From: a virus
Length of the DNA stretch: 45,653 nucleotides
IMG/VR virus record: IMGVR_UViG_3300042802_000002
Direction: 5' to 3' (one strand)
Position numbers and translations under genes: made by a program. The notes under the pieces are model-generated. The model saw only the letters and a program-made list of their open reading frames with translations. It did no database searches and was not told the origin of the DNA. Shown here piece after piece: positions 768 through 45,653 of the stretch (position 1 is the stretch's first letter; each line of letters begins with the position of its first letter).

Positions 768-1226
768 TTATTCTTCTTCTATTTCCTCAACATCAACTGC
801 ATTTTGCCGTTGCTCAATCATATCTACCGCCTTTGATAGCTGTAGAAGGGTATCATCATCCAATTCCTCCAGTTTATCCACTTTATTATGGTCTATTGAT
901 CCAGATACCTGATGCTGATGTTCTACTCTGTCTGCCATTCCTCCAAAGTTTTTAAGCCAGAAGATTGCTCCCGTGGTATTTCGCCCAGGAAGGAATAATT
1001 GTTGCTCCCAAAGACTAATAATAGTATTTTCAGCCTTTTTTACTGCTGTTGAGTAATCGGACTTATTTTTATAATTATAGAAGGTTGTTCTATCTATATC
1101 CAAAAACCTGCAGAGGTCAACAATGCTGACGAAGTTAATTTTTTTATCCTTATCAAGTTTAGCCTGAAAATAATCATCTATAGCTTTTTCTAATTCTTCA
1201 GGAGTATATTTTGGTGGTCTTGCCAT
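768..1226 (-). CDS. Putative terminase small subunit (N-terminal HTH-like region, C-terminal IFWLKN motif)
   Basis: 152-aa ORF; ATG preceded by AGGTGA; N-terminus MARPPKYTPEEL and C-terminal GAIFWLKN resemble small-terminase families as I remember them. Not verified by search. Confidence 0.45.
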   Translation of the reverse strand: MARPPKYTPEELEKAIDDYFQAKLDKDKKINFVSIVDLCRFLDIDRTTFYNYKNKSDYSTAVKKAENTIISLWEQQLFLPGRNTTGAIFWLKNFGGMADRVEHQHQVSGSIDHNKVDKLEELDDDTLLQLSKAVDMIEQRQNAVDVEEIEEE

Positions 1227-1574
1227 AATTTCACCTACTTAATATTAATAAGATAATCTTAATAACTATATTAATCTCTATTTCAAAAGAAAAGAAAATA
1301 TAAAAGAAAAGAAAAGTTCTTTCTCTTTCCGCAAATCTTTTTTGAAGATCTGCTACAAGAGTCAGAGAAAAACCTGCTCAGGTTATCGCTTACCTGAAAT
1401 AATTTTCTGCTTGTTGCTGCAGGTCCTATCTCTACTATTATTATATGCTTTTATATTGTTAATTGCAAAATATAGCTTTATATATGTAATTCAAATAACT
1501 AAGAATAAAAGAGTATTCTGGAGGTTTTACGGCTATAATCTAATCTAATCAGTCTATAAGCTAGAATATAGATG

Positions 1575-1603
1575 TTGAAGAACTGCTCTACTATCTATAT
1601 AAT
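1575..1603 (+). promoter_or_regulatory. Sigma-A-like promoter (TTGAAG, 17-bp spacer, TATAAT) for the plus-strand cassette
   Basis: Hexamers read directly with a 17-bp spacer, about 45 bp upstream of the 1648 start codon. Confidence 0.4.
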
Positions 1604-1647
1604 GAAGTTGCAAGAAGGAAAAAACAAATTTCAAGGAGGAATTAATA

Positions 1648-2028
1648 ATGATTGAAAACAAGCAGAAAATTATTGAATTGGCGGACAGGATAGACAAGGA
1701 ATTAACTTCATTAGTCTATGAAATACAGCAGTTAGACAGCCACGAAGAACAAACAGTATTAAATGTTATTAATGAAATAGGTTTACCTGATTTGGAAGAA
1801 CTAGAATATCAATTCGGCAGACTTGCAGAAATGGCTGACAAAGTAGAAGTAATAGGCGGGTATCAAGTTTGGGTTGACTCTTATCACGAATTGAATGTAA
1901 TTGTTAATAATCAGCATATAAGGACAGAGGGAACTATGGAAAGAGTTTTCGACAGACTACTAATGAAGATTGAGGATAGACAAACCGCAAAAAACATCTT
2001 TAAATGGTACTTTGATAAAACATATTAG
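1648..2028 (+). CDS. Hypothetical protein
   Basis: 126-aa ORF; AAGGAGG 8 nt upstream of the ATG. Confidence 0.6.
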   Translation: MIENKQKIIELADRIDKELTSLVYEIQQLDSHEEQTVLNVINEIGLPDLEELEYQFGRLAEMADKVEVIGGYQVWVDSYHELNVIVNNQHIRTEGTMERVFDRLLMKIEDRQTAKNIFKWYFDKTY

Positions 2029-2070
2029 ACTGAAAGTTAATTCTTGCTGATCTTCACAGGTCAGCAGGTA

Positions 2071-2117
2071 CTAGCTTTTAAGCTAGAAAAAATCTAAAAG
2101 GAGAGTGTTAAATAATG
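2071..2117 (+). repeat. Intergenic repeat copy 1: palindrome CTAGCTTttAAGCTAG followed by a conserved Shine-Dalgarno/start context
   Basis: About 47 nt, nearly identical to 2608..2654, ending at the ATG of the downstream gene. Confidence 0.7.
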
Positions 2118-2564
2118 AAAATTACAAAGTTTGATATCAGGTTAATCAAGGAGAACGAGGTGGATTATCAGGCAATAGATAACGAGAAAATCACAAACCC
2201 AATAGTCGCAGCTGAATTCTTCAACAAGGTACTAGAAATGGATATCAGAGGTCAGGAAGTGTTAGCAATGGCGACATTAGATGTCAAAAATAATATAACT
2301 GGAGTTTTTGAGGTCCACAAAGGCGGCCTTTCTTCTTCAATTGTAGAACCTAGAACAGTTTTTCAGCGGGCAATAATGCAAAATGCTGCAGGTATAGTTT
2401 TGTGCCATAACCATCCAAGTGGCGACCCAATGCCGAGCGGCGATGATGTCAGCATAACAAAAAAATTAGTCAAAGGTGGCGATATATTAGGAATTAATGT
2501 TGTAGATCATATTATTATAGCTGATAGTCAATATATCAGTTTCAAGGAAAAAGGTATAATCTAA
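2115..2564 (+). CDS. RadC-like JAB/MPN domain protein
   Basis: 149-aa ORF; C-terminal region LCHNHPSGDPMPSGDDVSITKKLVKGGDILGINVVDHIII matches the RadC-like JAB signature (HxHPSG ... S..D ... DH). Confidence 0.75.
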   Translation: MKITKFDIRLIKENEVDYQAIDNEKITNPIVAAEFFNKVLEMDIRGQEVLAMATLDVKNNITGVFEVHKGGLSSSIVEPRTVFQRAIMQNAAGIVLCHNHPSGDPMPSGDDVSITKKLVKGGDILGINVVDHIIIADSQYISFKEKGII

Positions 2565-2607
2565 TCTTAACGGTTAACTCTTGCAGGTCCTGAAAGATCT
2601 GCAGGAG

Positions 2608-2654
2608 CTAGCTTTTAAGCTAGAAAAAAATTAAAAGGAGAGTGTTAAATAATG
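2608..2654 (+). repeat. Intergenic repeat copy 2 (same palindrome plus Shine-Dalgarno/start context)
   Basis: Near-identical to 2071..2117; lies immediately upstream of the 2652 start. Confidence 0.7.
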
Positions 2655-3038
2655 ACTACTTATGAAAAGAAATTGGACGGCCACAAAATCACTCAAGAAT
2701 ATAAGGACTTTATGAGTATAGCAAGAACAGAGGACCACCAAATTGATGTATTAACCACTTTAATGGATAAGGTAGAAGTTGAGGAAGGTTATAGGCTTTA
2801 CAGAGGATTTAAGCCTGAATTTCAGGAAAGCAATTGGCCAAAAGTTATGCTACAGCTTTTTGATTTTGAAAGAGTTTGGGAATGGACCACAGCCTACAGG
2901 GAAGTATTTATAAATAAAGATTTAAAAGCAAAGTTCACTTATATTGAAGGAGATTTAATTTTAAAAGTATTTGATAACAAAAAAGACTTTGAAAAAGATT
3001 TAAAAGAAGCAGGCGAATTTTACGCAAAAGGTTATTAG
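2652..3038 (+). CDS. Hypothetical protein
   Basis: 128-aa ORF with the conserved upstream AAGGAGAG element. Confidence 0.6.
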   Translation: MTTYEKKLDGHKITQEYKDFMSIARTEDHQIDVLTTLMDKVEVEEGYRLYRGFKPEFQESNWPKVMLQLFDFERVWEWTTAYREVFINKDLKAKFTYIEGDLILKVFDNKKDFEKDLKEAGEFYAKGY

Positions 3039-3046
3039 AATTTATC

Positions 3047-3080
3047 CAGCTTGTCAGGGTCCCACTACCTGGCAGGCTGC
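3047..3080 (+). terminator. Stem-loop (12-bp stem with two G-U pairs) followed by a T-rich tract; possible attenuator or terminator
   Basis: CAGCTTGTCAGG pairs with CCTGGCAGGCTG; T-rich sequence follows. Confidence 0.35.
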
Positions 3081-3125
3081 ATTAAGTTTTAATTTTTCTC
3101 AAATCAAATGTAAAGGGGTGAAAAA

Positions 3126-3293
3126 ATGCAAGAATACAGCCAAATGTTATTAGAAAAGTTGGTCCGACATATTAACGATTTAGGTAGGACGGGACAAGCT
3201 GCAGAATTAACAGAAGTGCTGCAGGTCCTGGAGGAAATACAGGTCCAGGCCGAAAGCATACAGCCTGAATATTACATTAATAAGGGGGCGTAA
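3126..3293 (+). CDS. Hypothetical small protein (55 aa)
   Basis: ORF below the 60-aa track cutoff; AAAGGGG upstream of the ATG; fills the gap before the next gene. Confidence 0.45.
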   Translation: MQEYSQMLLEKLVRHINDLGRTGQAAELTEVLQVLEEIQVQAESIQPEYYINKGA

Positions 3294-3295
3294 TT

Positions 3296-3490
3296 ATGAA
3301 TATGAAGCGGAATCCATTGTTTGACGAGTTTACAGGTCGCTGCAGGCCACGATATTTCGTAGTTGACAACAAGGGTTTGATATTAGCAAAAGCAGCCACG
3401 AAAGCAGAAGCGGAAAGAAAGCGAATGATCTGCGGAGAGGGTCAGGTTATGCGGCAGGATAATCTATTCCAGGAGGGGGGCAGAATATGA
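3296..3490 (+). CDS. Hypothetical protein
   Basis: 64-aa ORF; GGGGG 6 nt upstream of the ATG. Confidence 0.5.
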   Translation: MNMKRNPLFDEFTGRCRPRYFVVDNKGLILAKAATKAEAERKRMICGEGQVMRQDNLFQEGGRI

Positions 3491-3603
3491 GAAAACTCAA
3501 AGATCTGATTATATACTTGTTGGCTGCAGTTGTCGGTGGCGGGTTTTGGTACTATCTTATAGTAGTTTGGGCTGATTATGTGGCGACTTATCCAAATTAT
3601 TAA
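3486..3603 (+). CDS. Small hydrophobic (single transmembrane segment) protein, 38 aa
   Basis: ATG overlaps the upstream stop (ATGA); hydrophobic core LIIYLLAAVVGGGFWYYLIVVW. Confidence 0.3.
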
Positions 3604-3688
3604 GCAGGAGTTGAGCAGATAATCAAGAATTAATAATTAAGCGGCCAGTTAACCGCTGGCTGCACAAAATCAAAAGGAGGAAATTATA

Positions 3689-4282
3689 ATGACTAAGCGT
3701 GAAAAAACTATGATGGAGAAGGTCCTAGAGGAAGCAAAAGAGCAGGGGTTTGAATGGTATAAAGATAATGCAAGTCCATTATTAAGTATAGACGAATTAT
3801 TAATGCAGGCAGAGGAAGAAGAATGGCAAGAAAGCAACGACCCAGCAACAGCAGAAATGACTATAGCTGATTTTGATAAGGAAATAGGAAAAGCATATAT
3901 CTACAAGGTTGACGACAGAGGTTATCTAAGGGACAGAGTTGCAGCAATATGGAAGCCAAAAAAAGATATAATTATCAATGAATTGGAAGGTCGCAGAATT
4001 ATTTTGACTGCTGATGAATTAGAAGAAATAGACCCTGAGTTATTAGATTGGATTACATCAAGCAAATACTGGGGCAGAGGTTATGACTATACACCCGACC
4101 GCTCAGAAGCTATTGTTGAGTTAAGATTTGATGAAGAAGGCGTCAGATATTACGGAGATTTTGAAGGCAGTAGCACACAACCAGGAGAAGATCCTTCTCA
4201 AAATCAAGGTCCTTGGGGGGGAGATAGTTGGGAAGATTGGACCATTGAACAGCTAAAAAAATATTATGAATTAATAAGATAA
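3689..4282 (+). CDS. Acidic hypothetical protein (D/E-rich)
   Basis: 197-aa ORF; AAGGAGG upstream; strongly acidic composition. Confidence 0.6.
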   Translation: MTKREKTMMEKVLEEAKEQGFEWYKDNASPLLSIDELLMQAEEEEWQESNDPATAEMTIADFDKEIGKAYIYKVDDRGYLRDRVAAIWKPKKDIIINELEGRRIILTADELEEIDPELLDWITSSKYWGRGYDYTPDRSEAIVELRFDEEGVRYYGDFEGSSTQPGEDPSQNQGPWGGDSWEDWTIEQLKKYYELIR

Positions 4283-4387
4283 TAACTCTATCAGCCTGGG
4301 TAAGCTGCAAAACTACCCGCTCTACAAGGTAAAAGTTTTTCTTTAGTGGGTAATTATACCTACTTTTTAATTATAGGAGGTGGAAAA

Positions 4388-4621
4388 ATGAAGGTATTAA
4401 GATATTTTGACGGCGAATATAAAATCGCTATATCAGAATTAACAACAGACCAAGCGGCCAGAATATTAACAGCACTAGATCAGGTAGACAGCGAATTAGC
4501 AGATGAAATCAGAACAGCAATTAAGGAGGGCAAAAATGCACGAAATCACAAAAAAAATCAAAGAATATATGGAGGAAAGAAATCTCAACCAGCAGGAAAT
4601 GGGAAAGTTAATCGGCGTTAG
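4388..4621 (+). CDS. Hypothetical protein (3' end overlaps the next gene)
   Basis: Start chosen at the internal ATG preceded by AGGAGGTGG; the track ORF 4346..4621 extends further upstream. Confidence 0.45.
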   Translation: MKVLRYFDGEYKIAISELTTDQAARILTALDQVDSELADEIRTAIKEGKNARNHKKNQRIYGGKKSQPAGNGKVNRR

Positions 4622-4829
4622 TAAAACTCATATGTCAAAGATAATGAACGGCCACCAGGACCCAGGCAGCAGAATGACCAATAAATATTATAAACTACCA
4701 GGTATCAAAGAAAGAGAAGCTATAGAACAGACAAAACAGGTAATAGATGATTTATGGTTATCAGGCCAGATTGATGAGCCTGCAGCCAAAAAATTGGTTA
4801 AGGCTTTGCAATATGACAGCGATAACTAA
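4536..4829 (+). CDS. XRE-family helix-turn-helix DNA-binding protein
   Basis: Start chosen at the ATG preceded by AAGGAGGG; HTH-like segment NQQEMGKLIGVSKTHMSKIMNG. Confidence 0.6.
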   Translation: MHEITKKIKEYMEERNLNQQEMGKLIGVSKTHMSKIMNGHQDPGSRMTNKYYKLPGIKEREAIEQTKQVIDDLWLSGQIDEPAAKKLVKALQYDSDN

Positions 4830-4883
4830 TTATATAATCATAACTGGCGGGTTGTTGGTGGTGGCTGCTATACTCAAAAAGAA

Positions 4884-4917
4884 AGGACCAGGGGCTTAAT
4901 CCTGGTCTTTTTCTTTG
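4884..4917. terminator. Bidirectional intrinsic terminator between the convergent plus cassette and the minus early block
   Basis: 9-bp stem (AGGACCAGG / CCTGGTCTT) flanked by an A-run upstream and a T-run downstream. Confidence 0.5.
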
Positions 4918-5078
4918 TTCTCCTGTTTTTCTAATAGATCATTAATATTGTCGGCTTCCTTCTTCTCCATTTGGTGCAGCTCCCAAAACCCTTCTAGTCC
5001 TTTCCTGCGGGCTTGTTCTCTAGTTAGGTTATTCCAGCGTGTAATATTAACTACCTCCTTTGCTACCACCTGCAGCAA
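4896..5078 (-). CDS. Hypothetical protein (uncertain)
   Basis: 60-aa ORF whose 3' end overlaps the terminator hairpin. Confidence 0.3.
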   Translation of the reverse strand: MLQVVAKEVVNITRWNNLTREQARRKGLEGFWELHQMEKKEADNINDLLEKQENKEKDQD

Positions 5079-5125
5079 TAAACATTACTATAAAACATAT
5101 CATTACTAACCAGCGGGCTATTTCA

Positions 5126-5686
5126 TTAATCATCTTCTGCTGCTACCTTCTCCGCAGCTTCCTCTGCTATCCTGTCAATCATATAATTAGGCAGTCCTGG
5201 ATATTCTTCTCTCAAATCTTCCTTAATTTTTGTAAGGTCCATTAGTCCTCCTTTGCTAACTTCATCAGGTATCGGATCAACGCCCGCTCTTTTTTCTTGA
5301 GTTCCTGCCTTCTCTTTGCTAACTTTTTGTATTCTTTCAGCTTGATTACTTTTTTGTTCATTTCCCGTAACCTCCTGATATAATACATCATAATATCCAT
5401 TAATACTGTCTATCTGTTCATCAGTAATAACAGTAACCACCGACCAACCTGACCACAATCCGCTGCTATCAGGTGTCAATACTGAAAACACCAGCTTTTC
5501 ATTAATTTCGCCTGTAAAAAATAAGTAAAACGATTGATTTTCTATTACATACGGCTTAATCCCCTGCCTTAACTTAGGGAGAAAGCGGGTAGATATATAA
5601 CCCGCTATTTTTGTTTTCTTCCAAAAAACCTCTACTCTTTCAGTCCATCTATTTTGAGCGTGATTTGTAACTCTGATTTTGAACAT
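5126..5686 (-). CDS. Hypothetical protein
   Basis: 186-aa ORF in the co-directional early block. Confidence 0.6.
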   Translation of the reverse strand: MFKIRVTNHAQNRWTERVEVFWKKTKIAGYISTRFLPKLRQGIKPYVIENQSFYLFFTGEINEKLVFSVLTPDSSGLWSGWSVVTVITDEQIDSINGYYDVLYQEVTGNEQKSNQAERIQKVSKEKAGTQEKRAGVDPIPDEVSKGGLMDLTKIKEDLREEYPGLPNYMIDRIAEEAAEKVAAEDD

Positions 5687-17245: not shown

Positions 17246-20200
17246 CTAATCACTAAGCGGCTCTTTGCCATTATATCTGCGAGCCAAATTAATTTTTTGT
17301 CTTTCTAGTTTATCTACTGTTTCTTTTTTACCCTGGCTTTGTGCGTACTTAATTTGCCTGTTGATATTAGCGAAGTGCCTAATCAGCTTATTTAGTTGTG
17401 ATAAATTCCTTTTAGCTTCCATTATTTCTTTTCGCGAGTACCTTAAATCTTCGCCATATCTCCTTGAATTATTATAATTAGCGACCATTTGAGTATATTT
17501 TTTCTGATCCTGGTACACTTTTGTTACATCTTCATAATATCCAGACTCTGAAATACTTATTAGCCGCTTAACTGCATTAAAAGGTATTATATTACTTAGT
17601 GCTTCTAAAGTGCCGTCAGCATAAGCAATAGAAGGATTAACTATTGCACTACCTCCTAAGTTAAAGAACTCATATAATCCAAATTCTTTAAGTTTCTGGC
17701 CGACATTACCTGTCAGCATAGCTTCCTCTGATATTACATTTCTACCCCGCCAGGTATCGTAAATATTCTCTCCAGATGTTAACCTTTGAACATCAGCTGC
17801 GGCCTGCAATAATGGGTTAAGATTACTTGTATTCCACGGTAATTCAGTCCAGACTGTACCTGCAACATCTCCCCATTCTCCACGGGCTGCATTATAGACA
17901 GCAGATGTAACAGCCTGTCCGATAAAGTCCTGTGGAAGTTGTATAGTTATTGCTTTGCCGTTTGCTTTCCATACAGGAACTACTAAATAAGTTTCTTTTT
18001 TATATTCGCTGACGCCTTCCATTGTTTCTGCTATCTTTTTAGCAAATTCACTATTTGGGAATAATTCGTCAGCTTCTTCTGCACCAAGCTGCAGTAATTT
18101 AGGAAGCAAACTAAATAACGCAAGTTTAAATAAGAATGTGCCTGGATTTTGCCTAAAACTTTCAGCTGCAGCAGTCCAACCTGATTTCCTAATTGTTGAG
18201 AAGATAAATAAGTTATTAGTAATTGAGTGTAAAGCACCTCTTTGCTTGAAGTCAGGAGTACCGACTCTGGTCCTTACTCTGTGTGCTAAATCGCCTTCAG
18301 ATAGATTAGTTCTCTTGCTTAACATTCTGTATCCAGCTATTTGACCTGCCATTTCTGCGACCTGACCGAAGTTGTCTAATCCTTCCCAAGCACTACGGAC
18401 TTTATCGGGTATTAATTTTTGTAATCTGCTGTGTTCTTCCCCGCTTTGTTCGTTATAATCAAAGATTTCAGTTAATAACTGTTGAGTATCATCTTCCATA
18501 TAACTGTCAGAAGGTCTATACATTCTGTCTATGGTTAACATTCTATTTCTTCTCATATATGAAATATCTTCTGATCTCTTATTGTGCCTTACATTATTCC
18601 AGGCTTCTGAAAAAGCCTTCTTGTACTCGTGGGCTAATGCTGGAATATCTTTTATACCAATTTCAGGGTTATTCATAACTGTAGCAAAGAAATCTCGTGG
18701 AATGTTAAAAATCATCCAACGTGGGTTGTGAGATACAATTATCGACTTCATACCCTGGACTATTGATAAAATAGTATTTGTAGCTGCATTAGCCTTGTGT
18801 GGAGTATATTCGTATAGGTCAGCTATATCTTTTTCAACTAAATATCCGTCTAATTTGCCGTTAACTGTAAAAGTTATTAATCCTTCATCAGCGTCTGTAG
18901 AGTCTTTAGGTATTATCTTACCGTATATTTCTTTTGTTGGTGCTTGTCTTATTGACTCTGGGGCTATTTTCTTTAATGCTTTTACTGCAGCCACCTTAGA
19001 CTCGTTAATACGGATAGAACTGATTATACTCATATCTTTAAGCATTGTGGCAACAAGTGGATTACTTATTTTCCTACCTGTACCATATTGCCGCATAATT
19101 ATATCGCCAGTACCTTCGCCAAATTCAGTATTAATATAATCTACTACCTCAAAAGTTACATACTCTTTATTATTTTTAACTTTTTCCATAGCTGCTTCTG
19201 TAAACATATTAGATTTTTCCATTATAGGTATAATTCTTTCCTGTCTTAATTGATAATATTTTTCTGCAGCGTTAACTATTTTTTGATATTTTTCTTCTCC
19301 GTATTTATCTAATAAAGCCTGCTGCATTTCTTCTGCTCTAACTGTATTAACAAAAAGTGGGTTAGCATATTTTCTTCTGTCGCCCAAAACTCTTTTATTA
19401 AATAAGAAAGAGTTAAAATCTAAGAAGTCTATATCATAATTTGATAATCCTTCTATTATCTGGCCTATATTGTAGAGGTAATCTTCTACCTCAGAGGACA
19501 TATAAGCTATTTCCTCCATTTTATTTCTTGCTTCCCTGGATAACTTTCCTTTTTCTCCAGTATCGCTGTATTCTCCCCTAAAATATTTGTAGAGGGCTGA
19601 ATTTTTATCAATAAAACTTTCTATTAGCCAATCAAAACCACTTTTTACTCCCCGTTCTCTACGCTGTATCTTCTTTTTAGTCTGTTCTACACCGTCAACC
19701 ATACCTTCTTGTAAATTGTCAAAGGTTTTGTTTATCATTTCAGATCTATTTTCCATTAAGTGCCTTACAGTATTATATGATTTTTTTACTGCTGGCTTTT
19801 CAGATATACTTTTTTGGATAAACTGACTAAATAATGGTGCTTCCTGCTGCAGCATTTCAGGATCCAAAAAGAATACACTCATAGCGTCAGCGTAAAGTTC
19901 CTCTGGGCTAAAGCGGTATTGTCTGTATTTTTTATTGCTTGTATCAAACGGTTTCCATTTTTGAGATAACCTCTGCAGCTCTTTTTTTAGTCTGGGACCT
20001 AACTTTTTACTATCTCTGATAGCGTCTAAGGTTTCGTCTTTTTCTCCTTTGTAAATAAGACTCATATTATCCATTAATTCGCCTTCATCTAACTCACTTC
20101 TAGGAATAAAATCTATTAAGTGGCCTAATTCGTGCGACATTGTCTGTGCTGCAAACTCTGGATCAACTTCTAATACTCTGACCTCTACATAGTTTTTAGT

Positions 20201-23200
20201 AAATTTAGTTTTAAATTCTACTTCGCCAATTTCAGGATCATTTTCTATTCTTGTTCTAATTTCCTGTATTCTTCTGTCATATTGCTTATTTGGTATCTTT
20301 TCCTGGTGGATTGTAGGTCCGATAAATATATCAGGATTAAGGCCTATACTGCCGTCTTTAGGCATATAATAACCCAATGTACCTGTATTACTTAACTTTT
20401 TGATAATACCAGGATATTTGCCCTCTGATAAGGCTAGAATTATATCTAAGAGTTCAGGCATTTCTATTTTTTTATCGTTAAGAGTAAACTTTGCTCTAGC
20501 ATACTTATTCTTCTGGCTAAATTCTACAGCGTTTCTGCTCATTTTAACATTCTTGCCGTTAATATTTATATTTTTAGGCTCTTTACCGAATAAAGTTTTG
20601 TTAGTTTCTATACTTTTTTTAACATTATTATTTTCGTTGCCTACTTCATATCTTATTATTTTGCCCCAGCGTGGTGATATATTACCTTCTTTTATTAAAT
20701 CGTTAACCTTAGATTTTATTGTTTCTACTGGAGTTTTATCAAAACTTTCTTTTAAGTTTTTAGCAGCTTCTTTAATTGTTCTGCCGACTGACATTTTAGC
20801 ACCGCTTTTACCTTCTGTTATAATCCAATAGTTTGGAGGTGTAGTTGTCTTTTTGTTTTTGATTTTACCTACCTGATCTTTAATCCTATATCTAAAAAGG
20901 TCCATATCTTCTGTGCCAGGTATAGATATTGGTTTAGCTTTTAAAACCTGCACAAATTCGCCTTCGTTATCGAATATATAATAGTTGTTAGGCTCTGCTA
21001 ACTGACTTGTATCAATATCAGGCTTACCAGTTTTAACAGTTTCTCCTTTAAATACCCCTGATTGATCTGTTCCTCCTAAAGCCATAATAATATCAGAAAT
21101 AACAAGCGGTCCTCTAGGTGTAACTACCTTGCCTTTTTCTCTTTCACTATATATTGGAGGTTTATTTTCAATTTCAATATATCCTCCAGGAGTATTAATT
21201 TTAATAGTTTGATTAAAGTTTTTAGACTTTTCGATTAAGTCTTTAATCATATCTTTTCTCTCAGTATAACTTCCCATAATATCCCGTGTTTTGCTTCTTT
21301 TAACTATTTTTAGATTATCAAATAATTCATCTGAATTTATATCGCCATTTATATGCTGCCATAATCTATATTCTAAAGTATCTTGCCTAGTTGGACTTGA
21401 TTTACCTTCGATTTCTTCCATTCTTTCCTGTGCTTTTTCTTGTGCAAATTCTTCTACTTGTTCAGATTGATATTTTTCTAATCTTTTTTCTATTTCATCA
21501 ATAGCTTTATTATATTCTCGACCTATATCATCTACAGACGCTTGCGAATTAGGTAAATCAAATTCATCTTTTGAAATTTCTAATCCAGCTTCCCTAGCTT
21601 TATTAAATATTTCTTCAAATTCCGTGGTTTGTTTATCATATAAATCTTGTTTAAATTGCTGATTTTCTGTAGTTTCTACATTATTAAATCTTTCTTTATA
21701 GAAGTTATAAGTAGGCTCATTTAACATTTCTACTTCTCTAGCTTTATCTAAAATTTGATTAACTTTATCTTTAGATATATTACCTTCTTCAATATCAATA
21801 GTAATTCTATCTAAATCACCTTTAACTAAATCATAGATAGCTGTTATAATTTCTCGATCAGCTATTTCCTGTCCCCATTCAGTTAGTGCAGCACTACCAG
21901 TTTTCCTATTTTCATTTTCTGTTTTTCTTTTTTGCTTATCTTCTCTTTTTATTGCATTACTAATTGCTGTTTCTCTTTTTCTACTAATAATTTTTTGTCT
22001 TTCTTCTATTTCAGCTTCTTGTCTTGCTTTTTCAGCCGCTTTATTAATATCTTTAGTAGTAACAACTTTCCCTTTAGTTTCAGAAGTCTTTTTAACATAG
22101 TTATATGCTTTGCGGCCAGCTTCTTTAATCTGTTTTTTATCTTTTGGAGTAAGTTCTATTTCATTTTCTTGCTGTTCTCCTACAACTTCACCTTCTTGTT
22201 TTTTTATTTTTCTACGAATAGATTTTTTAGCTTTTTCCTGCCATTCTACCATAGCTTTTCTTTTGTTTTGTGCCGCTTTGGCTCTTTTATCGTTCTGACG
22301 AGTATTGAAATTAGCAGGCCCAGCTATCATAGGAGAACTTACTCTGCTTTGAGAAGATAAATAATCATTTAATTTTTTAATATAATTTTCTTTATATTTC
22401 TGTAATTCATCAGTTAATACTTTTCTTTGTGTTTCATTTCCGACAATCTCATTTAATTCATTATATAAATCTTTTATATGGTTAATATATGATCTTTTAA
22501 GTAAATCGGCCCTGTCTTTCGGGGTGTGGCTAGTCCCTCTGAAAGCTCTAATTAACAATTCATTATCTAAATCATTTGGAGAAATTTCTATTGGTATATC
22601 AGAAGTATCTATGTCCTCCGCTTTAACCTTTTTAGTAGGCTCTGAAAAAGCTCTCTTTTCTAAATATTCATATCCTGCTTTTTCACCAAATTTATTAGCC
22701 ACTTTATTAGCTGCTCTAATTAAAGCATTAAAACTTTCTTTTTCTCTCCAAAATTCTATTTCTTTTTTACTAAAACCTTCATCTTGATATTTTTTATCTA
22801 AAAAGTATTTTTCATATTTATTTAATTCATATTCTTGTTGTCCTTCATCTTCAACAATACCTTCCTGTTGCTGTTGGCCCTCTTGGATAGGTTGGCCTTC
22901 AATAGCTGCTCTAGTTTTTCTGGCTTCATTGATAGCGTCATCTATCCTCTGATAAGTCCAGGTGTTACCGTTCGTATCTATAACATCAAATTTAGCACCA
23001 TTATGAACTACATAAGATTGTAATTCTTCTGGAATGCCAGGAGTATTCTCTTGCGAAGCCATTTCTCTAAAATTATCTATTTGCTCGTTGCTCTGTTGTA
23101 TATATTGGCCTGTTTCTTCTACTGTTGTATCTGGCTGTGTATTTAGACCTTCATCAGTTTGATTTTCATTTTCTATAGTATTATCCACATTATTTGGCTG

Positions 23201-25069
23201 CTCAATTGGAGTTTGAGCGACATCTCCCTGCTGCTGCGGTTGTGGTGTATAATTTTGTCTAGCTTCTACTAACTGCTTTCTTAAATCTGATAAAACATTT
23301 AGCGATTTTTGTCGAACGGTATCTACATCATCTGCAGCTGTAGGCATATCATATTGACTTAAATCTACCTGGCCGCCATACTGATTAATTCTTCCTACTA
23401 TATCATTAATCATTTTCTGACGGCTGCTAAGTAAATTCTGTGCTGCCTGTGGTTGATTTTCAGCTATTTCTGCCTGCTGCACCTGTTCTCTTGTTGCTGT
23501 TTCAAATGGAGTAACAGTTGATAGATCATATCCGTTGTTAGCAAGTACGGTAAACAATTCTTCCATACTTTCAGCAGTCATAGTACCCTGTCGCTGGTTG
23601 CCCTGGAATACATCAACTAAAATATTATCATTCATATTTCTTACAATAGCATAATTATTGTTATCTATATTAACTGTAAAAGTGTTTAAATCTTGCTGGT
23701 TATTGATTAAGTTTTCTAAAATTCTTTGTTTAGCAACTGCTGCAGCTTTTTGTTCAGCCATTGTTCCCTGAAAACCTTGGAAAGCATTTTGGGTAGCTTC
23801 TCCACTTTGTTGTCTTTGCCTTTCCATTTCTTCTTGTTGCTGCATTTCAGTCTTTTTTTGGTTAAGCTGTCTGCTAATTTTTTCTATCCTTCTTTGTTCT
23901 TTTTGATTTCTTTCATACCGTGCTTCTCTTTTTAAATCTTCCATCATTCTTTCCGCTTTGATTATTTGATTAATGTCGTATCTTAAATTTTGAGCATTGT
24001 TTTGTCTATAATCTCCTACGGAAGAAAGAATAGCACCTGTAGCAATAGCACCTAATCCAGCGTTAGCAACTAAAGAAGTGAATTCGTCTGCATTAAATTG
24101 TTTTCCTTTAATTATTACATCAGAAATATAGTTTGTTGCCTCTGTACCCATTTCCTCGCCAGCTTCTGATAATCCACCTTTAGCACCTGATTTAAGCCAG
24201 TTTGCAAGACCCCACTCTATACCTTTTTGCATTTGGTCGCCAGCTATTTTATTAGTTCTCACAATATCATCTATCATAGGGAGTGTTACTAAACTTTCCC
24301 AAATCACTTCGGAAGTACCTTTTACACCTGCTGATAGTAACTCTTGTTGGTCTGATAGTTCAGGACCACCTTCTGTTTCTCTATATTCGCCACCAGCAGC
24401 TGATAATCCAATAACTGCTTTGGGTAGGGCTTGCGATAGTACATTAGAAGTACCTAACATACTACCTGCTGTGCTTGTAGCACCTAAACCCTGTGCTGCT
24501 GTACCTGCAAAACCGCCCATCATAGCAAGTAATATATTAGGAGCAGTCTGTGCTGTTACGCTAACTAGCTGCTTGCCAAAGTCCATAAATCTGCCTTCTT
24601 TTAGACTTTCTATCATATTATTACCCAACTGCTTACTTTCCATACTCTTGCTATCAAAAATGGTTTCTGCAGCTTGATTAGAAGCGTCAGAATAGCTGTC
24701 TAACCCTTCTTCTATAAGATTAAACCCTGGTATCTTAAAAGCGTCGCTGCTGTCAACTTTCATTTGTTCATTACCTGTTAATTCTGCAAAAGCATTTTGA
24801 GGTTGTGCTGCAGCTGAATAAACGAATTTACCCAGCCATCTAGCACCATTTGCTATATTACCAAATAATCTAGCTGATCCTCCTGCGAAATCTTTGGCAG
24901 TATCAGTAAATATGTTGCCGTCATTATACTGCGGCTGAGGTTGATTAACTGGCTGGCTGATATTTTGTTCTGTATTCATCTGCATATCAGGAAAAGGTAT
25001 TGCTTTAACATTTATATTGTTTTTTGGTTTTTCTTCTTCCATACCTGGAAAAGGTATTGCTTTAGCCAT
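17246..25069 (-). CDS. Giant virion-associated protein (2,607 aa) with HExxH motif; candidate internal/ejection or tail protein
   Basis: Uninterrupted 7,824-nt ORF; duplicated N-terminal KAIPFP(G/D)M motif; Gly/Ala-rich hydrophobic stretches; long Q/E/K-rich regions; HELGH encoded at 20120..20134. Confidence 0.8.
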   Translation of the reverse strand: MAKAIPFPGMEEEKPKNNINVKAIPFPDMQMNTEQNISQPVNQPQPQYNDGNIFTDTAKDFAGGSARLFGNIANGARWLGKFVYSAAAQPQNAFAELTGNEQMKVDSSDAFKIPGFNLIEEGLDSYSDASNQAAETIFDSKSMESKQLGNNMIESLKEGRFMDFGKQLVSVTAQTAPNILLAMMGGFAGTAAQGLGATSTAGSMLGTSNVLSQALPKAVIGLSAAGGEYRETEGGPELSDQQELLSAGVKGTSEVIWESLVTLPMIDDIVRTNKIAGDQMQKGIEWGLANWLKSGAKGGLSEAGEEMGTEATNYISDVIIKGKQFNADEFTSLVANAGLGAIATGAILSSVGDYRQNNAQNLRYDINQIIKAERMMEDLKREARYERNQKEQRRIEKISRQLNQKKTEMQQQEEMERQRQQSGEATQNAFQGFQGTMAEQKAAAVAKQRILENLINNQQDLNTFTVNIDNNNYAIVRNMNDNILVDVFQGNQRQGTMTAESMEELFTVLANNGYDLSTVTPFETATREQVQQAEIAENQPQAAQNLLSSRQKMINDIVGRINQYGGQVDLSQYDMPTAADDVDTVRQKSLNVLSDLRKQLVEARQNYTPQPQQQGDVAQTPIEQPNNVDNTIENENQTDEGLNTQPDTTVEETGQYIQQSNEQIDNFREMASQENTPGIPEELQSYVVHNGAKFDVIDTNGNTWTYQRIDDAINEARKTRAAIEGQPIQEGQQQQEGIVEDEGQQEYELNKYEKYFLDKKYQDEGFSKKEIEFWREKESFNALIRAANKVANKFGEKAGYEYLEKRAFSEPTKKVKAEDIDTSDIPIEISPNDLDNELLIRAFRGTSHTPKDRADLLKRSYINHIKDLYNELNEIVGNETQRKVLTDELQKYKENYIKKLNDYLSSQSRVSSPMIAGPANFNTRQNDKRAKAAQNKRKAMVEWQEKAKKSIRRKIKKQEGEVVGEQQENEIELTPKDKKQIKEAGRKAYNYVKKTSETKGKVVTTKDINKAAEKARQEAEIEERQKIISRKRETAISNAIKREDKQKRKTENENRKTGSAALTEWGQEIADREIITAIYDLVKGDLDRITIDIEEGNISKDKVNQILDKAREVEMLNEPTYNFYKERFNNVETTENQQFKQDLYDKQTTEFEEIFNKAREAGLEISKDEFDLPNSQASVDDIGREYNKAIDEIEKRLEKYQSEQVEEFAQEKAQERMEEIEGKSSPTRQDTLEYRLWQHINGDINSDELFDNLKIVKRSKTRDIMGSYTERKDMIKDLIEKSKNFNQTIKINTPGGYIEIENKPPIYSEREKGKVVTPRGPLVISDIIMALGGTDQSGVFKGETVKTGKPDIDTSQLAEPNNYYIFDNEGEFVQVLKAKPISIPGTEDMDLFRYRIKDQVGKIKNKKTTTPPNYWIITEGKSGAKMSVGRTIKEAAKNLKESFDKTPVETIKSKVNDLIKEGNISPRWGKIIRYEVGNENNNVKKSIETNKTLFGKEPKNININGKNVKMSRNAVEFSQKNKYARAKFTLNDKKIEMPELLDIILALSEGKYPGIIKKLSNTGTLGYYMPKDGSIGLNPDIFIGPTIHQEKIPNKQYDRRIQEIRTRIENDPEIGEVEFKTKFTKNYVEVRVLEVDPEFAAQTMSHELGHLIDFIPRSELDEGELMDNMSLIYKGEKDETLDAIRDSKKLGPRLKKELQRLSQKWKPFDTSNKKYRQYRFSPEELYADAMSVFFLDPEMLQQEAPLFSQFIQKSISEKPAVKKSYNTVRHLMENRSEMINKTFDNLQEGMVDGVEQTKKKIQRRERGVKSGFDWLIESFIDKNSALYKYFRGEYSDTGEKGKLSREARNKMEEIAYMSSEVEDYLYNIGQIIEGLSNYDIDFLDFNSFLFNKRVLGDRRKYANPLFVNTVRAEEMQQALLDKYGEEKYQKIVNAAEKYYQLRQERIIPIMEKSNMFTEAAMEKVKNNKEYVTFEVVDYINTEFGEGTGDIIMRQYGTGRKISNPLVATMLKDMSIISSIRINESKVAAVKALKKIAPESIRQAPTKEIYGKIIPKDSTDADEGLITFTVNGKLDGYLVEKDIADLYEYTPHKANAATNTILSIVQGMKSIIVSHNPRWMIFNIPRDFFATVMNNPEIGIKDIPALAHEYKKAFSEAWNNVRHNKRSEDISYMRRNRMLTIDRMYRPSDSYMEDDTQQLLTEIFDYNEQSGEEHSRLQKLIPDKVRSAWEGLDNFGQVAEMAGQIAGYRMLSKRTNLSEGDLAHRVRTRVGTPDFKQRGALHSITNNLFIFSTIRKSGWTAAAESFRQNPGTFLFKLALFSLLPKLLQLGAEEADELFPNSEFAKKIAETMEGVSEYKKETYLVVPVWKANGKAITIQLPQDFIGQAVTSAVYNAARGEWGDVAGTVWTELPWNTSNLNPLLQAAADVQRLTSGENIYDTWRGRNVISEEAMLTGNVGQKLKEFGLYEFFNLGGSAIVNPSIAYADGTLEALSNIIPFNAVKRLISISESGYYEDVTKVYQDQKKYTQMVANYNNSRRYGEDLRYSRKEIMEAKRNLSQLNKLIRHFANINRQIKYAQSQGKKETVDKLERQKINLARRYNGKEPLSD

Positions 25070-45102: not shown

Positions 45103-45142
45103 TTTATCTCCTTAAAATTGCTTTGATAAGACAAAACTAACA

Positions 45143-45415
45143 TTATTCAACAACTTCCCAATCGTTTGATAGCATATCAGGTTGTGAAGCTAACCACCCT
45201 GGCTGCCATTTCTCGCCAGCGGTCCACATAACTATATACCCCTGACATTCTAAATCTTTCCCTTCTGGTAAAAATTTTCTGCTTCTACCATTAACCATGC
45301 TTTCTTCAATAGTTACAGGTGGCATATAGCACAGCCACATATTTTTACCATTCCAACCTTTTCGTGCAATTTTTTTGCCTTTTTTTAATTCTTCTAATGC
45401 TTTACCAAAATTCAT
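45143..45415 (-). CDS. DUF2829-like protein (Tad2-like anti-defence candidate)
   Basis: Start set at the internal ATG preceded by GGAGGG; MNFGKALEELKKGKKIARKGWNGK ... WLASQPDMLSNDWEVV matches the DUF2829 pattern as I remember it. Confidence 0.55.
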   Translation of the reverse strand: MNFGKALEELKKGKKIARKGWNGKNMWLCYMPPVTIEESMVNGRSRKFLPEGKDLECQGYIVMWTAGEKWQPGWLASQPDMLSNDWEVVE

Positions 45416-45425
45416 ATTGCCCTCC

Positions 45426-45632
45426 TTAAAACTGCTTTGAAAGTGTAAAACTAACATTATTCGGAGTCTTACAATCCTGCTTTATTCTTAAATGGCCTAA
45501 AGGAAGTCTACCATCAACACCAACTATACATATATCGTCCTCTACATAGGAATAGTGCAGCTTTTTTACTACAAAATTAGGAGATTGGAGTAAATGCTCG
45601 ACCACTATCCTGTCAAAGCTAGAAATATCCAT
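45426..45632 (-). CDS. Hypothetical protein spanning the terminal repeat
   Basis: 68-aa ORF; its 5' part lies inside 45527..45653 and is therefore duplicated at 1..106. Confidence 0.45.
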   Translation of the reverse strand: MDISSFDRIVVEHLLQSPNFVVKKLHYSYVEDDICIVGVDGRLPLGHLRIKQDCKTPNNVSFTLSKQF

Positions 45633-45653
45633 AGTGCCGTCCTCTGATACTGT
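45527..45653. repeat. Terminal direct repeat, right copy (identical to 1..127)
   Basis: Direct sequence identity with the first 127 bases. Confidence 0.9.

Follow-up and report, generated by a model that had tools for sequence, protein, structure and literature searches.

The repeated spacer in the + strand gene cluster

The viral DNA examined here, record IMGVR_UViG_3300042802_000002 of IMG/VR, is a stretch of 45,653 nucleotides that we call the window; it carries a repeated intergenic element, or linker, on either side of a gene encoding a RadC-like JAB-domain protein. The first 127 positions of the window are repeated exactly at its end (1-127 = 45527-45653), which is the pattern that assemblers leave on circular contigs; the window is therefore a complete circular genome of about 45,526 bp. 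It belongs to a tailed phage, and genes for the small and large terminase, the portal, the major head protein, a Mu Gam-like protein, a G39P-like protein and a single-stranded DNA-binding protein (SSB) are on the - strand. The linkers lie within the only + strand block (1648-4829), which is composed of nine to ten small genes, mostly without a family match, and which ends with the gene of a 97-aa helix-turn-helix (HTH) protein (4536-4829).

A preliminary description of this DNA had reported a nearly identical element of about 47 nt, with a 16-bp inverted repeat, upstream of two consecutive genes. The near-identity is real: 2071-2117 and 2608-2654 agree at 45 of 47 positions, and the two differences are adjacent and fall within an A-run (AAAAAATCT versus AAAAAAATT). 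The inverted repeat is also present as described; it is CTAGCTTTTAAGCTAG, a palindrome with 7-nt arms around a central TT. The extent, on the other hand, had been under-called, because the full repeat is 83 nt long and 86% identical between copies (direct repeat family D4), and includes a G+C-rich hairpin upstream of the palindrome that had gone unmentioned (coordinates in Table 1). The repeat starts 8-9 nt past the upstream stop codon and ends one base past the downstream ATG, and thus represents the complete intergenic spacer; the two spacers that hold it are 86 and 87 nt long. Eleven of the 12 differences between the copies are located in the hairpin or in the A-run.

Each copy has the same order from 5' to 3': GTTAAY, a 12-bp G+C-rich hairpin (hairpin 1), CTAGCT-TTTA-AGCTAG, the A-run, and AAAAGGAGAGTGTTAAATA-ATG. 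The CTAGCT-TTTA-AGCTAG segment directly abuts hairpin 1 and has the form of a second hairpin with a 6-bp stem and a 4-nt loop (hairpin 2). Two modules can be distinguished: module A, of about 59 nt, which begins just past the upstream stop codon and contains both hairpins and the A-run, and module B (AAAAGGAGAGTGTTAAATA-ATG), the translation-initiation region that serves the downstream gene. The proteins encoded downstream of the two copies are unrelated (RadC-like, MKITKF..., versus a 128-aa protein, MTTYEK...), so the repeat is not a duplicated gene start and no coding sequence has been duplicated.

Within the 45.5-kb genome the palindrome occurs exactly twice, at 2071 and 2608 and both times on the + strand, as established by the genome-wide search that the preliminary description had proposed. 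The ribosome-binding 22-mer AAAAGGAGAGTGTTAAATAATG likewise has exactly two occurrences in the window (expectation from shuffles, 0.01), and a covariance model of the 59-nt hairpin module detects nothing in the window beyond the two copies. Rfam gives no match at E up to 1 in the region 1200-5200 on either strand. A consensus scan finds no sigma-70-like promoter in 2029-2114 or 2565-2651; the best manual candidate within the element is TAGAAA-16-TTAAAT, from which transcription would start past the ATG. The next spacer of the cluster contains a hairpin related to hairpin 1, after which a short AT palindrome takes the place of CTAGCT...AGCTAG; in L042 and L045, two of the related contigs considered below, its version is CTTGTCAGGTCCTGATGACTGGCAGG.

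The reading that we favour, with moderate confidence, is that the element is a portable intercistronic linker made of two separable modules in the hypervariable accessory-gene operon of a phage of about 45.5 kb.

Gene exchange at the linkers

About 20 contigs of one narrow phage lineage were obtained through pattern and protein searches of viral and metagenome collections, and 12 distinct versions of the element were found among them. The RadC proteins of the lineage are 93-100% identical, and yet the number of copies of the element among these closely related contigs is 0, 1 or 2. Searches with the flanking proteins led to the same lineage only, and the covariance model found no element in 47 loci of more distant RadC-encoding phages.

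If the family of the 126-aa gene is called f4 and that of the 128-aa gene f5, the arrangement in the window is f4 - linker - RadC - linker - f5. L094 and L096 have f4 - one linker - f5 and lack RadC, an arrangement that recombination between the two copies is expected to produce. L042 has promoter - RadC - linker - f5, f4 and copy 1 being absent. In L045 copy 2 and f5 are missing, with a junction exactly at the stop codon; this relative has no copy of the element left and retains the operon and its HTH gene. In L020 a RadC 100% identical to that of the window is followed by a hairpin with a different top and by an unrelated downstream gene, a combination that places the crossover inside hairpin 1. 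Both variants of the A-run are found with either type of hairpin, hence crossover or gene conversion must also occur at the palindrome. Throughout these relatives the junctions of gene gains, losses and replacements fall inside the linker or at its edges.

The modules are also separable from each other. Module B alone, without hairpins, precedes RadC in L039, L041 and L043, and in L006, L043, L099 and L100 three other ribosome-binding regions, with other genes, come after module A; each type of copy adjoins different genes in different phages. The observation in the preliminary description that conservation reaches beyond the ribosome-binding site is thus borne out, and it is explained by the adjacency of two modules, one of which goes with the upstream gene as its 3' flank and the other with the downstream gene as its 5' flank. 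The first five codons, ATGACTACTTATGAA, are common to unrelated downstream proteins, an indication that cassette junctions can fall just inside the open reading frame (ORF). When 2652-2667 is compared with L044, L097 and L020, the unrelated 128-aa and 147-149-aa families are seen to share the first 3-5 codons (ATGACTACT[TATGAA]).

Since the linker is conserved and the junctions lie inside it, the two copies act as homology patches. Comparison of the relatives shows the linker to be a patch of homology for the gain, loss and replacement of individual accessory genes. A recombination event between the copies of one genome, or with the linker of a co-infecting relative, removes, inserts or swaps a gene together with one copy of the linker. 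The possibility raised in the preliminary description that a recent local duplication of the gene start might be the sole cause of the similarity can be rejected, given the compensatory changes described below, the separate occurrence of the modules, and the different neighbouring genes across phages.

The linker has changed much less than the gene beside it. The RadC coding sequences of L043 and L044 share 88.9% identity with that of the window (74-75% at third codon positions), and the mismatches continue into the last codons of the gene, yet the next 67 nt of the spacer are identical at 67 of 67 positions. When five relatives are taken together, 335 nt of spacer contain 6 mismatches, the A-run swap accounting for four, versus 225 in 2250 nt of RadC; each relative has 0-3 mismatches in 67 nt of spacer against a RadC divergence of about 11%. 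Such uniformity would be kept by either purifying selection or frequent conversion.

A parallel case is present on the - strand of the same genome, where a gene similar to that of Thoeris anti-defence protein 2 (Tad2-like; 45143-45415; PF11195, 7.3e-25) lies between 41-nt direct repeats that are 85% identical (family D11), each composed of stop codon, spacer and ribosome-binding site. In L093 and L045 the gene is precisely absent at the repeat and one hybrid repeat is retained. This repeat has no G+C-rich hairpin, and homology alone therefore suffices for gain and loss of a gene, so that the hairpins of the RadC linkers need a separate explanation.

The closest known system is that of the promoter-early stem-loop (PeSL) cassettes, repeated intergenic regulatory cassettes in the hyperplastic regions of T4-type phages, where recombination between them mediates the same kind of shuffling of orphan genes and gives rise to mini-circles (Arbiol et al. 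2010, PMC2839356; a later paper on the subject is PMC4122927). The likeness is at the DNA level: in both systems a short repeated intergenic motif with a stable stem-loop lies in a hypervariable region of small genes without assigned function, the repeats coincide with indels and replacements among close relatives, and a gene between repeats moves as a unit. Mini-circles of the PeSL kind, if formed here, would measure 537 bp for RadC and 314 bp for the Tad2-like gene. What the element lacks is the defining feature of PeSL, a strong early promoter of the sigma-70 type that is preceded by an AT-rich region and adjoins the stem-loop; its conserved part outside the hairpins is instead a ribosome-binding region. 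Moreover, there are two copies per genome rather than dozens, and the phage, of about 45 kb, is not T4-like. The system is thus a variant of a behaviour known from T4-like phages and no new kind of system; current views are not overturned and the value is incremental. It offers a sequence-level example, outside T4-like phages, of small phages that exchange single accessory genes (RadC-like JAB, Tad2-like of the anti-Thoeris type), in which repeated spacers would supply both the expression signals and the recombination homology for each gene, and such linkers are possible landmarks for mobile accessory and anti-defence genes in metagenomic phage genomes.

The hairpins as RNA, and competing explanations

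The predicted folding energies of copies 1 and 2 are -25.9 kcal/mol (z -3.6) and -28.9 kcal/mol (z -4.4) for the + strand RNA, and -18.2 kcal/mol (z -2.0) and -19.2 kcal/mol (z -2.2) for the - strand. In an alignment of the 12 distinct versions, 97.8% of the cells of hairpin 1 are paired, whereas in a control where the 3' partners were slid by 1-3 columns pairing drops to 24-46%; RNAalifold independently recovers both hairpins. Three pairs of hairpin 1 show compensatory double changes, one U·G is invariant, and one C-to-U change converts a G-C pair into G·U. On the other strand these G·U wobbles would be A·C mismatches, which argues for selection of the structure on the + strand, in the simplest case as mRNA. 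The comparison thus shows hairpin 1 to be maintained as a selected + strand RNA structure. It exists in three main forms and two single-base variants, and it varies mainly in the upper stem and loop, whereas the base of the stem, the palindrome and the ribosome-binding block are fixed. The palindrome is identical in 12 of the 12 versions, an invariance that is in part a retrieval bias, most relatives having been retrieved by a palindrome search. The suggestion of the preliminary description that the element might be an RNA processing or stability hairpin has therefore held mainly for the adjacent 12-bp stem, which it had not included; the palindrome itself, being invariant, is uninformative.

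On a polycistronic mRNA the pair of hairpins could serve as punctuation, as a barrier to exonucleases, as a processing site, or as both, and would give separate stability to the cistrons on either side. An endonucleolytic cut might occur in the AU-rich stretch past the stop codon or in the A-run, with the hairpins shielding the new 5' or 3' end, and the A-rich tract and the strong Shine-Dalgarno sequence would load ribosomes on whichever gene comes next. The 59-nt double hairpin is accordingly a compact candidate for a portable element of mRNA punctuation.

Comparable arrangements are known in other phages and in bacteria. RNase III sites separate the early genes of phage T7, and work by Hue and colleagues in 1995 reportedly placed RNase III sites in the early RNA of phage SP82, together with a polypurine 5' stabiliser. 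In the Bacillus subtilis cggR-gapA and glnRA operons the transcript is cleaved between cistrons and the product owes its stability to a hairpin downstream from the cleavage site (PMC11780869), and the reference list in PMC3997798 includes work on strong Shine-Dalgarno or polypurine 5' stabilisers. The linker resembles these intercistronic processing sites (cggR-gapA, glnRA, T7, SP82) in its position between the cistrons of one operon, in the context of a phage early or accessory operon, and in having a short AU-rich single strand past the stop codon, a stable hairpin and a strong purine-rich Shine-Dalgarno sequence. It differs from them in having no sequence similarity to the described sites and no Rfam match, and in having stems (12 + 6 bp) below the usual length of RNase III substrates.

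Two further proposals about the RNA were discarded. A role of the hairpins as insulators that keep the ribosome-binding site unpaired was not supported, no significant effect being obtained in comparison with shuffled or deleted hairpins. A long-range closing helix between the GTTAAC flank and GTGTTAAAT, seen in the fold of copy 2, is not conserved in copy 1, nor in variants whose ribosome-binding region differs.

Several points weigh against the portable linker with a function in RNA. The variants of hairpin 1 amount to only about three independent haplotypes, and hairpin 2 has no covariation support, its palindrome never varying in a set that is biased by palindrome-based retrieval. The calculated accessibility of the ribosome-binding site is 0.54 and 0.56 for the natural copies versus 0.45±0.10 and 0.52±0.07 with shuffled hairpins. 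With 12 and 6 bp, the two abutting stems fall short of what classical RNase III substrates have, as sites of the T7 and SP82 type are characterised by about two turns (at least 20 bp) of largely double-stranded RNA and by staggered cleavage. The Tad2-like repeat shows that hairpins are not needed for recombination itself, and frequent gene conversion, with no selection on RNA function, could account for the high conservation of the spacer. Finally, the RNA role, that is stability or processing hairpins together with a strong ribosome-binding site, is one that we infer.

One alternative, which we consider unlikely, is that hairpin 1 followed by CUAGCUUUU is an attenuator or leaky terminator, stopping part of the RNA polymerases and thereby grading expression along the operon and insulating its cassettes. 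A permissive terminator scan passes copy 2 (12 pairs, 6 of them G-C, with the tail CTAGCTTTTA) but does not flag copy 1, and the four U residues begin 5-7 nt past the stem, in the loop of hairpin 2. PeSL stem-loops in the equivalent position have been shown to terminate transcription (PMC2839356). The related hairpin of the next spacer also has a T-rich stretch about 8 nt further on, but the spacer hairpin at 3641-3664 is without any U-tract. Furthermore, at least six downstream genes depend on read-through, yet no promoter follows the element from which transcription could restart.

It is similarly improbable that the element has no function of its own and is a by-product of cassette joining, its spacers carried along from donor phages and its conservation due to repeated gene conversion. 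This explanation would account for junctions that fall within the linkers, for a Tad2-like repeat that works alike without hairpins, for the confinement of the element to one narrow lineage, with none in the 47 distant RadC-encoding phage loci, and for the relative L045, which does without it. However, compensatory and wobble-preserving changes in hairpin 1 are unexpected if pairing is not under selection, and neither the restriction of variation to the upper stem and loop, away from the stem base, palindrome and ribosome-binding block, nor the related hairpin kept in the third spacer would follow from it.

The preliminary description had also proposed a shared operator for a dimeric regulator, perhaps the HTH protein. 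A DNA operator or roadblock of this kind, where the regulator binds CTAGCTT-TT-AAGCTAG and modulates transcription of the cluster or directs recombination, now appears quite improbable. The dyad is perfect (7+2+7), and its innermost T-A pair is impossible in an RNA hairpin, so that the symmetry extends slightly beyond what the RNA stem needs. The palindrome is the same in every copy, although this is partly the retrieval bias, and a 10-mer of the element, TAAGCTAGAA, recurs at 1557-1566 within CTATAAGCTAGAATATAG, just upstream of the -35 of the cluster promoter, but this is a half-site only and of different symmetry. The authors of the PeSL study speculated on protein binding to their conserved stem (PMC2839356), and the same could be imagined here. 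Against this, the consensus scan finds no promoter in or beside the element, the only good promoter of the cluster being at 1575-1603, and the full palindrome is absent from the promoter region (1227-1647) and from the rest of the genome. Site and regulator also fail to occur together, since no copy exists in L045, which retains the HTH gene and the operon, and a single copy is present in each of L042, L094 and L096. Operators of Cro/CI-type HTH repressors share with the element a 16-bp dyad present in two copies near an HTH gene; here, in contrast, both copies lie away from the promoter, inside one operon, flanking a single gene, and are dispensable in L045, a close relative that keeps the HTH gene.

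A bolder form of protein binding would make the palindrome the site of a dedicated protein (the HTH protein of the cluster or an unannotated small protein) which controls the expression of individual anti-defence-type cassettes inside the operon or actively promotes excision and insertion of linker-flanked genes such as RadC. We give it little credence; if true, a small phage would possess a targeted gene-cassette system, as opposed to passive homologous recombination. Integron attC sites are imperfect inverted repeats (R''/L''-L'/R') with the core RYYYAAC...GTTRRRY at cassette boundaries, and the element is not one of them: its 5' end, GTTAAYT, misfits the inverse core RYYYAAC, and it forms two independent hairpins and no single long bulged stem, the apparent closing helix between the 5' flank and GTTAAAT of the ribosome-binding block being lost in variants with other ribosome-binding regions; no search aimed at an integron integrase was made in the genome.

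Other features of the genome

Table 1. Positions of the linker features, neighbouring genes and signals, and the Tad2-like repeats in the window.
Feature	Position	Strand	Support or remarks
Linker copy 1, whole spacer between the 126-aa and RadC-like genes	2036..2118	+	D4 repeat; covariance model, 85.1 bits
Linker copy 2, whole spacer between the RadC-like and 128-aa genes	2573..2655	+	D4 repeat; covariance model, 87.9 bits
Hairpin 1, copy 1: TTCTTGCTGATC / loop TTCACA / GGTCAGCAGGTA	2041..2070	+	folds; 3 compensatory pairs, invariant U·G
Hairpin 1, copy 2: CTCTTGCAGGTC / loop CTGAAA / GATCTGCAGGAG, 12-bp stem	2578..2607	+	folds; weakly terminator-like
Palindrome / hairpin 2, copy 1	2071..2086	+	exact match; invariant in all variants
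Palindrome / hairpin 2, copy 2	2608..2623	+	exact match; invariant in all variants
A-run and translation-initiation block, copy 1 (AAAAAATCT AAAAGGAGAGTGTTAAATA ATG)	2087..2117	+	precedes RadC without hairpins in L039, L041, L043
A-run and translation-initiation block, copy 2	2624..2654	+	other ribosome-binding regions instead in L006, L043, L100
RadC-like JAB-domain gene, cassette between linkers	2115..2564	+	Pfam PF04002, E 1.7e-38; absent in L094, L096
126-aa gene, first of the + strand cluster, upstream of copy 1	1648..2028	+	without family assignment; absent in L042
128-aa gene downstream of copy 2	2652..3038	+	other gene families instead in L020, L044, L097, L006, L043, L100
Best sigma-70-like promoter of the + strand cluster, TTGAAG-17-TATAAT	1575..1603	+	consensus match only
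Terminator-like hairpin with T-run, cluster end	4881..4912	+	terminator scan
Hairpin of the next spacer (87 nt), related to hairpin 1 (CTTGTCAGG...CCTGGCAGG)	3047..3079	+	fold; sequence comparison
Upstream 41-nt repeat copy of the Tad2-like gene	45422..45462	-	family D11
Downstream 41-nt repeat copy of the Tad2-like gene	45108..45148	-	family D11; one hybrid copy left in L093, L045

Of the five real spacers that the + strand cluster contains (2029-4387), four are 85-87 nt long (86, 87, 87 and 85; the fifth is 105), and each of these four contains a G+C-rich hairpin. The imperfect palindrome CTATAAGCTAGAATATAG occupies 1551-1568 and is kept in L042; it is a candidate regulator site. In L034, L035 and L036, three otherwise unrelated viral contigs, the exact 21-nt ribosome-binding block, AAAGGAGAGTGTTAAATAATG, stands in front of different genes and has no hairpins, which is above a uniform-chance estimate.

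A genome of about 34% G+C, strong ribosome-binding sites of the AAAGGAGG type and the G39P-like protein suggest a low-GC Gram-positive host; no close cultured phage relative was found, and no prophage relative either, the element and the large terminase being unmatched in 185,579 reference genomes. Another presence/absence difference of a single gene concerns L004, L037 and L103, which have an extra gene for a PDDEXK_5-domain protein (about 136 aa) between the genes of the small terminase and of an 81-aa zinc-ribbon protein; where some relatives have the PDDEXK_5 gene, the window has non-coding DNA only (615-679).

The - strand also contains a 2607-aa ORF (17246-25069) that adjoins the structural genes and has no sequence match in PHROG, Pfam or the Protein Data Bank (PDB). 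A HELGH metalloprotease-type motif is located around residue 1645, and the product could be a giant virion protein of the internal or ejected kind. This ORF had raised the idea of a virion RNA polymerase that uses hairpin promoters, in the manner of N4 or crAss-like phages, which was abandoned because the ORF has neither a DxDxD motif nor a database match.

With regard to short motifs, CTGCAGG occurs 15 times versus 3 in dinucleotide shuffles (for example at 1417, 2386, 2599, 3219 and 3340), and TGCAGGTCCT occurs three times on the + strand within 1418-3229. As a special motif CTGCAGG was rejected: a higher-order Markov expectation fits its count (8 versus 8.6 per strand), and the excess is therefore an effect of composition. 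AAGCTT, the HindIII site, has 0 copies in the whole window versus 13.5 expected under a Markov model, which suggests avoidance of a restriction enzyme of the host. CTAG and GATC are mildly depleted in the window, with ratios of 0.65 and 0.72, respectively.

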